This document shows positions 38,238-61,396 of a DNA stretch of 64,000 nt, in pieces (position 1 is the first letter of the stretch; each line of letters starts with the position of its first letter). A model generated the notes under the pieces. The model made no database searches, was not told the origin of the DNA, and saw nothing but the letters and a program-made list of their open reading frames with translations. The translations under genes and the position numbers were made by a program. The stretch comes from a virus: the IMG/VR virus record IMGVR_UViG_3300027901_000002, positions 1-64,000 of that record, one strand, 5' to 3'.

Positions 38238-38366
38238 TAAGGAAGGTCGGATTTGCACCGACGCTTTCTTAGGTGATGGTCTCAGTAAAGAAAGTCTAAA
38301 ATAGATAAGCGGACGTCCTTACCATCATTACCGTCAGTAGGCTTTACGCTATCTATTTTCTTCCTT
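38238..38366 (-). ncRNA. tRNA-like structured RNA (acceptor stem + T-arm, two extended kissing arms)
   Basis: AAGGAAG/CUUCCUU 7-bp terminal stem, GUCGG-UGCAAAU-CCGAC T-arm, 13-bp and 7-bp arms, complementary loops UGAUGGU/ACCAUCA. Confidence 0.75.
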
Positions 38367-38401
38367 TATTTTATTTTATTTTTAAATTTTCTTAACATAA
38401 A

Positions 38402-38423
38402 AATATTTTAAACATTTATAAAT
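38402..38423 (-). promoter_or_regulatory. Putative TATA-type promoter motif (copy 2), upstream of the tRNA-like RNA
   Basis: Plus-strand AATATTTTAAACATTTATAAAT. Confidence 0.5.
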
Positions 38424-38984
38424 GTGTATTCCCAGACGAAGCATTTTTATTATTTTCAGATTTTTAAAAATAATAAAATAATCAAAATTGAAGTCGCTAC
38501 GACGTTTCCAATCGAGGTATATAAAATAAACCTAAGAGTAGAGTTAATTTTTTGCGTTACGTTTAGTGTGTCTTGTAAAGTATCTAAAAGTTCGAGTATA
38601 TCTTCTTCCATACTTAAGAAGAGTCCTAGCTCGTACAAATCTTTTTTCGTGTAAGACGAATTACATTCTTTACAATAAAATCTTTCGTAAACCCAATTCA
38701 TTTCAATGTTTTTATGTATCGGACAATTCATTAGTTGTTCGCCATTATTAAGCAAAGCGTTATAATTACGATAGATACGCCTAAAAACAAGGAAATAACA
38801 AAAAGGGCGTATTTTTTAAGTTGGTTCAATTTTTTCGACCTTAAAAGTAGTTTCGTTATCGATTCTTTCTGGATCTTGATTCCAAATCCTTTTAGTTGCT
38901 TTTCTAATCGCTTCGCACTCGTCTTCCGCTTCTACTTCTACTCTGTAAATATCTATCAAAAATTCTTTTACTTCTACTTTATAT

Positions 38985-39428
38985 TTAACCACTCATATCC
39001 ACTCTTATTTCCATTATTATACCATCTTCGATTTTTGCGTAAACTGGATACAATCCATCTCCAAATCCAGAATCAAAAGATACAGCTAAACCATCGTGTC
39101 CAAGGTGGAAAGGTATTTGTTTGTAACTTTTTCCTTTTTTGTGAGAGACGTAATTGTAAGAAAATTCAAATTCTGGTTCGTAATGTATTCGAATCCATTG
39201 TTTAAGATCGTGTATTAAGTTATTAGGTGTTAATCCTAGTTCTTTTATTTCTTGTTCGTAGCTATCAAAATCTTTACCATATTTGTATATTTTACCGCTT
39301 TCTTTGTCTCGATATTCTCTTATATCTTCGTATTCGCCTTTTTTCCACCATTTAAGATAAGAAGGATCGCATATTATTAACTGTCCAGAATCTACTCCAA
39401 CTACGCCAATTTTTTTCCATTCTGTCAT
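38985..39428 (-). CDS. DUF4241-like protein
   Basis: GVDSGQL.ICDP and SGFGDGLYPVY. Confidence 0.75.
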   Translation of the reverse strand: MTEWKKIGVVGVDSGQLIICDPSYLKWWKKGEYEDIREYRDKESGKIYKYGKDFDSYEQEIKELGLTPNNLIHDLKQWIRIHYEPEFEFSYNYVSHKKGKSYKQIPFHLGHDGLAVSFDSGFGDGLYPVYAKIEDGIIMEIRVDMSG

Positions 39429-39566
39429 TTCGAGTCGGTAGAGTTCGTCAACTCAGTGTTTCACATGCATGTTACGCACACCCCTGATAGCTCCTTGCTG
39501 TTGATTGAGGTAAGTGCAATGAGCACGTCTCTCGCTCCTTAGGAGTCCGTCTTAGGAGGCACCGAT
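39429..39566 (-). ncRNA. BHB-flanked element C (138 nt): predicted intron/circular RNA
   Basis: CGAG-AAA-UCGGU ... ACCGA-CUCG-AAA; GC-rich and structured. Confidence 0.75.
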
Positions 39567-39979
39567 TTCTCGTCTAACTCTTTTAACCATCTATTTATAA
39601 AACCATTTATTTCGTGAGTTGGAACGTTATATCCGCTTGGACTACCTTCAGACCATTTGTTTAAAATTCTTTGCGTTTCTAACAAAACTAGTTCTGCCAT
39701 AGTTTTTCTTTCTTTCAGAAGGTGTTGTTTTCTACTTAATTCCGCTTTTTCGTACATTCCATCTCTATAAAGCATTCTTGCAAACTTCATTTTTTGACGC
39801 AATTCAAAAATACCTAAATAATGACGATTAAACATTTCCACCAAAAACCTAGAATTTCGTCCTCTTTTTTCGAGCATTTTAATTGCTTTGTAAGTTCGCA
39901 AAAAATTACCAATACTTAGTTTAATTGGATTAGTACTTATATTACTACAAATTGATTCTATTTTTTCTCTTTTTGACAT
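39539..39979 (-). CDS. Hypothetical protein; 3' end interrupted by BHB element C
   Basis: 146-aa ORF. The predicted spliced form ends ELDEK-stop. Confidence 0.6.
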   Translation of the reverse strand: MSKREKIESICSNISTNPIKLSIGNFLRTYKAIKMLEKRGRNSRFLVEMFNRHYLGIFELRQKMKFARMLYRDGMYEKAELSRKQHLLKERKTMAELVLLETQRILNKWSEGSPSGYNVPTHEINGFINRWLKELDEKSVPPKTDS

Positions 39980-40194
39980 TATTTTTCGTCTAATTTAGAT
40001 ATTGGACAATTTTCCCAATCTTGTGAATTGTAACAACCGCTAGTACATCCTCCTCCTTTGCCACATATTTCTCCACCACCTCTTAAATCTACAAGATATG
40101 GACATGTTGTTTTACAAATCCACGTAACATGGTTCCAAGGGCAGTTGTTTATGTATTCACAACCTATACAATAATCTACGCTATAACTTGGCAT
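39979..40194 (-). CDS. Small Cys-rich protein
   Basis: Likely ATG at 40194 (MPSYSVDYC...), 10 cysteines. Confidence 0.6.
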   Translation of the reverse strand: MPSYSVDYCIGCEYINNCPWNHVTWICKTTCPYLVDLRGGGEICGKGGGCTSGCYNSQDWENCPISKLDEK

Positions 40195-40196
40195 AT

Positions 40197-40341
40197 ATCG
40201 AGTCGGCCTCAATTGAGATTTTTGCTCTGGCTTGGGAAATTTGCATGCTTTCCAAAATAGTTAAAAGCTATAAAGTTTATAATCCAATGGGATCTCTAGT
40301 CCCTGTCTACCCCCCAAGAGGCCGTCGCAGAGCTTACCGAT
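40197..40341 (-). ncRNA. BHB-flanked element B (145 nt)
   Basis: CGAG-AAA-UCGGU ... GCCGA-CUCG-AUA; inner stems GCUCUG/CAGAGC and CUUGGG/CCCAAG. Confidence 0.7.
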
Positions 40342-40427
40342 TTCTCGTTCGGCGGGATGTAGTGACAATACGCACCGTCCCTATGTGACCTTCCTTATTA
40401 CTCTTACGAGCTATGCCCTATACCGAT

Positions 40428-40559
40428 TTCGAGTCAGCTGGAGCTCCCAAAGAACTTTCGGTTAGAGACGATATACGCTTCAACCTCCCCTGCATCCACT
40501 CGTGTAGAGTCTTTCTCTCTACTCAGGATCTACGGCTGTCCCGCTTCGTTCACGCTGAT
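40428..40559 (-). ncRNA. BHB-flanked element A (132 nt)
   Basis: CGAG-AAA-UCAGC ... GCUGA-CUCG-AAA; inner GUAGAG/CUCUAC hairpin. Confidence 0.75.
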
Positions 40560-40877
40560 TTCTCGTATTCTTTCTTGTCTTCTTTTCTTAATTTCTTCTA
40601 ACTCACTTTTCGGAACTGGTTTTAACTTTACGCCTTCCGCAAAAACCAATTTTAATTCTTTTACCAATTCTTGCTTTACGCCGCTAATTTTAGGAGCAAA
40701 TTTTGGAGGTTTCGGAGGAGGGTTCCAAGTAGGACGAGAAATAAATCTTTTCGTCCCAACGAACCTAAGAAAACTACTTCTATTTCTCCCTTCCAATTCT
40801 GCGTTTTCGTCTATTTTCTTTAGCTCCTCTTCATTAACCCAAAAACTAATTTTTATTGCTCTTTTTCGATGCGACAT
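40530..40877 (-). CDS. Ribbon-helix-helix (CopG-like) protein; 3' end interrupted by BHB element A
   Basis: ISFWVNEEELKKIDENA..EGRNRSSFLR. Confidence 0.75.
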   Translation of the reverse strand: MSHRKRAIKISFWVNEEELKKIDENAELEGRNRSSFLRFVGTKRFISRPTWNPPPKPPKFAPKISGVKQELVKELKLVFAEGVKLKPVPKSELEEIKKRRQERIREISVNEAGQP

Positions 40878-41205
40878 AAGAAACCGATGTGTTAACCTTT
40901 AAGAATTGGTAAATAAATTGCTGTTAATAATATAAACGCAAGTAAATGTACGACAACCCAAAATATAGCAATTACGATTGCTATTTTTTCGTCTTTATCC
41001 ATTTTAACCCAAATTTTTCAAAAAAATTACCAAACAATCTATCGAACAAAAATCAAGCCTACATTCGTAGTAGGTTCCTGTTGTTTTATTGTTTTCGTCT
41101 GAAATATTAATATCAAACGTGCAGTTATCCTTACTAGAAATAGTAATCCAACCAACACATTTTCTAACTTCGTCTAACGTTCCTTCTCTTCCACAACTAT
41201 CGCAT

Positions 41206-60484: not shown

Positions 60485-61396
60485 TTAAATCTTATTTAAC
60501 AATAAATTGTTGTCTTCTAATAACTTTAAAAATTCTTTTGGACGCGTTCTATTTAAATGTTCTTTTCCATTTCCAAAATTTCGCGCCAAAAATCTTAAAT
60601 AATCCATTATAGTTCCTCGAGTAAGATAACGCCACTGTTCTTCGTCTCCAGAAAAATCCTTTATGTAAAGTTCGTGGTTAAATTTAACAGCAACAATATG
60701 ATAGTCTCTATACCAACTTCTTTGTTTAAAGAAGTAAATTGTTCCTCTGATTCTAAGCCACATTGTAAATGATGTATACCACGTATCGGCTATCTGGCGA
60801 AATCCCTCGTCGATTCGAGTGTGTATTTCTAACGCTTTTCTTCTTCTTTCCATTTCTTTATCGTACGCTTCTAATTGAGACATTTTATCTCTTAAGTAAG
60901 GGGAAGCAGATATTTCTTCTGGAGTAAAACCAAATTTTTTGTAAAATCTCCAACCGTCGTAAGTCGACGGGCTCGGAATGAAATAATCTATTAATTTTTT
61001 GTTTGCAATATATTTTTCGTCTATTTGTTTTATCAAAAATTCTTTGTATTTTGGATTTGCCAACGACAATTCTTTTAACAAAGGCCACGACAAACTACTA
61101 TGCAGCAAACGACAATCGCAATCGTGCTCTATCCACGCTTGTAAATTAGAACAATGTCCCCAAAATTCGTCTTCTGGAGGAATTTTAAATTGTGTGGCTT
61201 GATATTCTGTTTGATATGTACTCAAATCGTCTATCGACTCTATTTTATTTATTTTGTCGAAATTGCTTGGAGTGAGAACTACCAATAAATATTTACACAT
61301 GCTTATGTACTTATCGTTTATGTAAATATTTGTTTTTTTGCCTTCTAATTTAACTTCCATTTCTTCAGTAATTTTATAACATAATGATTCTGTCAT
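60485..61396 (-). CDS. Protein with the Lokiarchaeia-type CKYLL / EFWGHCSNLQAW domain
   Basis: LEGKKTNIYIND....CKYLL...IESID...I.PEDEFWGHCSNLQAW.E.....RLLHS.L..PLLKEL. Confidence 0.75.
   Translation of the reverse strand: MTESLCYKITEEMEVKLEGKKTNIYINDKYISMCKYLLVVLTPSNFDKINKIESIDDLSTYQTEYQATQFKIPPEDEFWGHCSNLQAWIEHDCDCRLLHSSLSWPLLKELSLANPKYKEFLIKQIDEKYIANKKLIDYFIPSPSTYDGWRFYKKFGFTPEEISASPYLRDKMSQLEAYDKEMERRRKALEIHTRIDEGFRQIADTWYTSFTMWLRIRGTIYFFKQRSWYRDYHIVAVKFNHELYIKDFSGDEEQWRYLTRGTIMDYLRFLARNFGNGKEHLNRTRPKEFLKLLEDNNLLLNKI

Follow-up and report, generated by a model that had tools for sequence, protein, structure and literature searches.

Two neighbouring genes on the minus strand of a viral genome are separated by a GC-rich segment, here called element C, and the question that this locus raises is whether the segment is cut out of the message as a tRNA-type (BHB) intron or is a piece of inserted DNA that stays in the RNA. 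The source record (IMGVR_UViG_3300027901_000002) is a single contig of 99,014 bp with 33.5% GC, which IMG/VR classes as a complete virus with direct terminal repeats; the window, which is the whole stretch of 64,000 nt that was analysed, forms part of this contig. All genes near element C lie on the minus strand and are closely packed, and C separates a 146-aa ORF (39979..39539) from a 147-aa ORF (39428..38985). Two further inserts, A and B, are found nearby, and the coordinates of all features are collected in Table 1. The viral genes include a family B DNA polymerase, a weak TFIIB-like protein, RFC-like ATPases, and glycosyltransferases, a predicted complement that is of the archaeal-virus type.

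Table 1. Features of the element C locus, with the evidence on which each assignment is based.
Feature	Position	Strand	Evidence and remarks
Element C	39429..39566	-	138-nt GC-rich insert, 51% GC vs ~33% for the genome; predicted BHB intron and circular-RNA precursor
Upstream ORF	39539..39979	-	146 aa when unspliced; last 8 codons (SVPPKTDS, 39565-39542) inside C
DUF4241-family gene	38985..39428	-	Pfam E 6.4e-8; start at 39428 backed by conserved N-terminus
TATA-like box TTTATAAA	39594..39601	-	Within the upstream ORF; 5' BHB site lies ~26 nt downstream of its centre
CGAG, central helix 5' strand (5' exon end)	39569..39572	-	MFE fold; alignment with A and B
AAA, 5' bulge	39566..39568	-	Fold; predicted cut 39567/39566, position per PMC2738675
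UCGGU, inner helix 5' strand	39561..39565	-	Fold; compensatory changes in A and B
ACCGA, inner helix 3' strand	39435..39439	-	Fold; compensatory changes in A and B
CUCG, central helix 3' strand (intron end)	39431..39434	-	Fold; pair probabilities
AAA, 3' bulge	39428..39430	-	Predicted cut 39429/39428; A39428 opens the start codon of the DUF4241-family gene
UGAC, weak outer helix 3' strand	39424..39427	-	Pairs with GUUA 39578-39575; GA 39574-39573 lies opposite the 3' bulge
Element A	40428..40559	-	132 nt; ends CGAG-AAA-UCAGC ... GCUGA-CUCG-AAA
Element B	40197..40341	-	145 nt; ends CGAG-AAA-UCGGU ... GCCGA-CUCG-AUA; 3' cut 2 nt before the ATG at 40194

Read on the minus strand, the borders of C are ...GAG UUA GAC GAG AA/A UCG GUG CCU on the 5' side and ACC GAC UCG AA/A UGA CAG on the 3' side, in which the slashes mark the predicted cuts. 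Excision of the 138 nt from 39566 to 39429 fuses GACGAGAA to AUGACAG and produces the joint GACGAGAAAUGACAGAA. This sequence read-out agrees with an earlier note on this DNA, according to which cutting after the second nucleotide of each bulge removes 39429-39566 and joins GAC GAG AA to A UGA. The further claim of that note, that the spliced upstream ORF ends ELDEK-stop on the start codon of the next gene, was confirmed on the minus-strand sequence: excision leaves the upstream frame with the ending E L D E K stop, and the UGA of this ending overlaps the AUG at 39428. ATGA coupling had also been described as a habit of this genome, and this holds because about 18 same-strand ATGA overlaps join open frames of 50 codons or more, in similarly A-rich contexts.

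The gene that follows C had been called DUF4241-like, and its Pfam match indeed lies above the cut-off (Table 1). Ten homologs of this protein start at the same place (M-x-EWKKIGVVGVDSGQL / M-x-(E)WKKIGVVGVDSGQL), and this shared N-terminus indicates that the AUG at 39428 is the real start. The predicted 3' cut of C falls exactly at the A of this homolog-backed codon. On the other side of the insert, the 146-aa protein has no homologs among 5.8 billion proteins (word-indexed search) or 1.84 billion representatives (full HMMER scan); both searches retrieved only the query. When C is not removed, the upstream ORF is still viable; it gains 8 codons and stops 110 nt before the AUG at 39428. The composition of these 8 codons differs from that of the ORF body, with G or C at 6/8 third codon positions and 62% GC, vs 30/138 and 30% in the body (P = 0.002). 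The read-through tail of the upstream ORF is thus insert-like and foreign in composition. Excision of C gives a sensible product in which the ATGA overlap is restored, the downstream start is validated by homologs, and the foreign tail is lost.

The earlier note went further and took this restoration as independent confirmation of the EndA cut positions, a claim that the sequence does not bear out. The direct repeat that flanks C is GAAAU (5 nt), and both bulges are AAA with a G before and a U after, which creates six cut registers that yield an identical product. Junction restoration therefore places the boundaries of C only to within the GAAAU window, and the register of the predicted cuts is ambiguous. 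In addition, any clean insertion into an ATGA overlap would be restored in the same way and, because 138 is a multiple of 3, the UGA stays in frame for any 138-nt deletion that ends upstream of the AUG. Such a joint is rare among chance motifs, which is a point in favour of the intron reading. The generic 9-bp geometry occurs by chance 3,997 times in the genome, and only 7 of these 3,997 motifs (C included) would make an ATGA joint of two open frames with 50 or more codons each; the ATG was vetted as a gene start for C only. At the level of sequence, precise restoration is evidence of a discrete insertion with ends at predicted BHB cut sites, and not of RNA splicing.

A BHB motif consists of a 4-bp helix between two 3-nt bulges, in which the end of the 5' exon pairs with the end of the intron (PMC4090602), and it is cut between the second and third bases of each bulge (PMC2738675). 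In the MFE structure, the ends of C form a 4-bp CGAG/CUCG helix between two AAA bulges on opposite strands, followed by a 5-bp inner helix. C thus has the core of the motif, namely a helix of 4 bp with both opposite-strand 3-nt bulges. The probability of the nine pairs that make up the motif is 0.91-0.98 in contexts of 20, 60 and 150 nt. Of the two flanking helices, the inner one has 5 bp; the outer one (GUUA/UGAC) has 4 bp including a G-U pair and is set off by a 2x3 internal loop, so that the 3' site is not a clean bulge. Because this outer helix is weak, the predicted motif is classed as a relaxed BHB and fits the HBh'-like type, not the strict hBHBh' type. The bare geometry (4 bp, a 3-nt offset, and 5 bp) is found about 1,900-2,100 times per strand in this AT-rich genome, and shuffled sequences contain about as many.

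As judged from these comparisons, the weight of the evidence for the C motif is its recurrence in A, B, and C. The 9-mer CGAGAAATC is present in exactly three copies in the 99-kb genome, all of them on the minus (coding) strand and within 1.2 kb, and these three copies are carried by A, B, and C. Each copy is followed by GACTCGA(A/T)AT 121-134 nt further on. The GAAAU direct repeat flanks all three inserts (with GAUAU at the 3' end of B), and a 9-nt context, ACGAGAAAU, is identical at the three sites. When the inserts were aligned, 27/27 pair cells of the motif were paired, a figure that comes from three sequences and has low power but is consistent with the motif. Two inner-helix pairs differ on both sides and remain paired (G-C to A-U in one; C-G, U-A and U-G in the other), which is a compensatory change, and sliding the 3' partner by 1-3 columns lowers pairing to 11-33%.

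A, B, and C have 12-nt ends in common and interiors that cannot be aligned, a pattern that indicates selection on the ends as far as three sequences can tell. EndA reads shape and not sequence, so the identity of CGAG, AAA, UC-G, and GA-CUCG in all three inserts needs a further explanation. Possible causes are a common origin with turnover of the interior, a target-site preference, or a need for cross-pairing. The outer helix is reduced to one A-U pair in A and likewise in B, and the pairing probability of these two motifs drops in long contexts. We think that this predicted loss results from competition for pairing among the similar ends.

Some other features of this cluster were also observed. 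Near their 5' ends, about 15-25 nt in, B and C contain an internal block GACGG(C/A)CUC(U/C)U that is not present in A, and no other part of the interiors could be aligned. The spacer of 80 nt between A and B (40348-40427, minus strand) is itself GC-rich and apparently non-coding. Excision of A would recreate a CGAG-AAA-UCGGU 5' site able to pair with the 3' site of B, and nested or recursive excision of A and B is possible according to this pairing model.

The reading that we prefer, and to which we give an even chance of being correct, is that C is an intercistronic BHB (tRNA-type) intron that the host splices out, restoring ATGA coupling. C would be transcribed as part of a polycistronic mRNA. 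Neither a TATA-like box nor a T5 tract is present inside C, so read-through transcription is expected and the downstream gene has no promoter of its own in the insert. In the transcript, the last four exon bases (CGAG) would pair with the CUCG that precedes the 3' bulge and, together with the 5-bp intron helix and the AAA bulges, would form the relaxed BHB. Host EndA would then cleave after the second base of each bulge, and a host RtcB-type ligase would seal the exons together and close the 138-nt piece into a circle. The joint sequences predicted from these steps are GACGAGAAAUGACAG for the spliced mRNA and CGACUCGAA joined to AUCGGUGCC for the circle. The spliced message would regain GAG-AAA-UGA / AUG, with an upstream protein ending in ELDEK, and the DUF4241-family gene would be translated by termination-reinitiation coupling to the upstream ORF. 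The unspliced message would present a GC-rich spacer ahead of the AUG, in which no Shine-Dalgarno-like sequence is visible. Because of this spacer and the lack of a visible Shine-Dalgarno sequence, splicing could gate expression of the downstream gene. Both functions suggested in the earlier note, control of translational coupling by splicing and a leaderless mRNA from cleavage without ligation, would be logically compatible with the sequence.

No member of the EndA or RtcB families was found among the viral proteins of the complete record, which means that splicing, if any, relies on host enzymes. ARAGORN found no tRNA genes in the virus. Information about the host comes from the ORF at 60485-61396 (minus strand), whose N-terminal 140 residues form a domain with hundreds of homologs. 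Every named homolog belongs either to a Promethearchaeota, Lokiarchaeota or Thorarchaeota MAG or to an unassigned record from a marine-sediment metagenome. A pattern scan of GTDB genomes returned 543 relatives of this domain, with nearly all named records being Asgard MAGs, and its structural neighbours agree with an Asgard affiliation. Because the relatives of this host-like domain are almost all from Asgard archaea, the host of the virus is likely an Asgard archaeon. Asgard archaea are the closest prokaryotic relative of eukaryotes. The domain family is hugely expanded in this group, in which it is often fused to LRR, TPR or Ras/Roc domains.

For Asgard archaea, an (alpha-beta)2 EndA with an L1 loop has been reported, a type that accepts relaxed motifs such as HBh' (PMC5829648). 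Such broad specificity matters here because the outer helix is weak in C and a single A-U pair in A and B. Asgard tRNA genes are heavily interrupted by BHB introns that were gained repeatedly and whose arrival route is unexplained (bioRxiv 10.64898/2026.10.13.758758). Three identical-ended inserts in one viral genome provide a testable lead on this route.

Other explanations of C do not need the splicing of an mRNA. C could be inert DNA that was inserted into the ATGA junction, by recombination or as a small site-specific mobile element, and is never removed from RNA; its BHB-like ends would then be short staggered inverted repeats plus a 5-bp GAAAT duplication. The GAAAU repeat and the common 9-nt context ACGAGAAAU of A, B, and C look like a target site, the composition of C is foreign, the unspliced ORFs stay open and stop soon after entering the insert, and precise restoration would be the outcome of any clean insertion. 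However, a shift of exactly 3 nt between complementary blocks on opposite strands is the signature of a BHB and is unexpected for terminal inverted repeats, the repeats comprise 4+5 bp only, and interiors with no common sequence argue against recent copies of one element. Moreover, no further copies turned up in the rest of this genome, and none in the other collections searched (IMG/VR, JGI metagenomes, GTDB genomes, and 400 Asgard genomes). With these points on both sides, we regard an inert insertion as rather unlikely. A MITE or small transposon was rejected as a candidate given the 3-nt stagger of the 4+5 bp blocks, a direct repeat (GAAAU) that is the same at all three sites, the unalignable interiors, and the lack of other copies in these collections.

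The searches behind these statements covered both relatives of the virus and the end motif itself. IMG/VR contained no relatives detectable through the upstream ORF, the RFC-like gene, the DUF4241 gene or PolB. The end-motif pattern gave ten matches in IMG/VR, all attributable to chance; they lack both the GC contrast and the inner helix. Its 24-base version gave 0 matches in GTDB genomes, the end motif gave 0 in JGI metagenomes, and six matches, at chance level, were obtained in 400 Asgard genomes. When the 1.2-kb region was compared with five Asgard genomes by BLAST, chance matches were the only result. A look for RNA runs that cover the region returned none.

Alternative alleles were sought in DNA contigs of four metagenome runs (X3-X6). 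Contigs of X3 and X4 bridge C and are identical to it, with no joint of an insert-free allele, and X5 and X6 have coverage gaps there. A contig found in X3 and X4 matches the RHH gene up to 40567, 2 nt before the CGAG of A, and continues with 115 nt of AT-rich sequence that neither the viral genome nor IMG/VR contains; the contig may represent a strain variant without A or an unrelated match. A candidate allele lacking A and B, suggested by a loose end at 40572 in X5, was rejected when it was traced to an unrelated cellular contig, L102 (Ga0209635_10095148), which shares about 33 nt. This 2.4-kb contig encodes DUF134-like and Gly/Trp/Arg-rich repeat proteins, and the overlap of about 33 nt is a coiled-coil-like coding stretch that resembles the 3' end of the RHH gene, an example of how loose ends can mislead.

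Two more readings accept that the segment has a role in RNA and differ in what that role is. The products of EndA might be what matters, with exon ligation not needed: a stable RNA circle of 138 nt that has a function in itself, a leaderless mRNA starting at A39428, or both. The 3' cut would leave AUGACAG... as the 5' end and thus a leaderless message, the cut of B would leave a 2-nt leader before the ATG at 40194, the processing of rRNA and other RNAs into circles through BHB motifs is established in archaea, and the ends of the inserts are conserved while their interiors differ. We nevertheless consider this quite improbable. The interiors show no excess stability over shuffled sequence (z = -0.85, +0.5, and 0.0 for the three inserts), no Rfam match at gathering score (the two chance-level matches at E<=10 are both outside C), no open circular reading frame, and no conservation, and so no function is visible. 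In addition, no AUG is near the 3' product of A, and RtcB ligates both exons and intron in known cases.

The remaining reading, for which we see very little chance, is that the GC-rich segment is a structured 5' leader or a small RNA made from a promoter that lies inside the upstream ORF, in its final part, with the BHB likeness being secondary. The box TTTATAAA may indeed act as an internal archaeal promoter, with a predicted start at the edge of C. It is the sole TTTAWAWA on the minus strand of 38900-40900, a motif with a genome density of 0.79 per kb there, its centre (39601-39594) precedes the 5' edge of the motif at 39571 by about 26 nt, and it loosely resembles a repeated motif at 38402 that is also located ahead of a structured GC-richer stretch. 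Against this, the box was noticed post hoc in AT-rich coding sequence, A and B have no comparable box, and an internal promoter leaves the identical ends of the three inserts and the frame-exact junction unexplained. The stretch at 38238-38450 (minus strand) is an observation in its own right: an AT-rich promoter-like motif, repeated at ~2001, 38402, and 47241, is followed there by a GC-richer stretch before the RFC-like gene, which is possibly another structured leader.

Returning to splicing by the host as our preferred reading of C, a broader version of it can be formulated for the three inserts together. A, B, and C would be virus-borne mobile BHB introns that insert at the 9-nt site ACGAGAA/AU, typically at gene junctions, and whose excision by the tRNA-splicing system of the host switches viral translational coupling on. 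We hold this version to be improbable, well below the proposal for C itself. If true, mobile viral BHB introns would be a concrete vehicle for the repeated arrival of introns in Asgard archaea, and the A/B/C family would be the first intercistronic 'operon intron'.

BHB introns are known from tRNA, rRNA, one cellular family of coding genes (cbf5), and one 5' UTR, and our literature search found no description of them in viral messages. The cbf5 pre-mRNA of Crenarchaeota contains a BHB intron in a protein-coding transcript (Watanabe 2002; Yokobori 2009, PMC2738675). Like the intron proposed for C, it is short (tens of nt), is located in a coding transcript, has mostly relaxed BHB ends with the predicted cut between the second and third bulge bases, and depends on a hetero-oligomeric EndA of broad specificity. 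However, the cbf5 intron interrupts a codon in an essential gene of the cell, and cDNA has shown that it is spliced, whereas C lies between two viral cistrons, has an unspliced form that is not obviously lethal, and is predicted from its sequence. The second comparison is with HVO_1309 of Haloferax volcanii, which has a BHB intron in its 5' UTR (Schwarz 2020, PMC7714728). In both cases a non-coding segment with BHB borders precedes a start codon, and removal of the HVO_1309 intron, of which the excised piece is a circular RNA, is thought to affect downstream expression. The HVO_1309 intron is 46 nt, cellular, and conserved in haloarchaea, and both circRNA-seq and cleavage in vitro have confirmed it; C, in contrast, is a 138-nt viral and intercistronic segment that overlaps the end of the upstream ORF.

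Several inserts with related ends per genome, bounded by the same splicing motif, are also described for Asgard tRNA introns and for the intron families of Thermoproteales (bioRxiv 10.64898/2026.10.13.758758; Fujishima 2010 as cited there). These introns sit in tRNA genes, and the Thermoproteales families share internal sequence, whereas A, B, and C share only their ends. The BHB stems of archaeal pre-rRNA are alike in another respect, because there, as proposed for C, an RNA is freed from a longer transcript and closed into a circle by EndA and a ligase. What is cut out of pre-rRNA is the functional product and its flanks are lost, whereas the flanks of C are the coding parts. C differs from the closest known BHB introns in being viral, intercistronic, and located exactly in a stop/start overlap. 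If spliced, an intron in this position would tie the expression of the downstream viral gene to the tRNA-splicing enzymes of the host, and splicing-dependent coupling of this type, if true, would give archaeal operons a kind of post-transcriptional control that is new.
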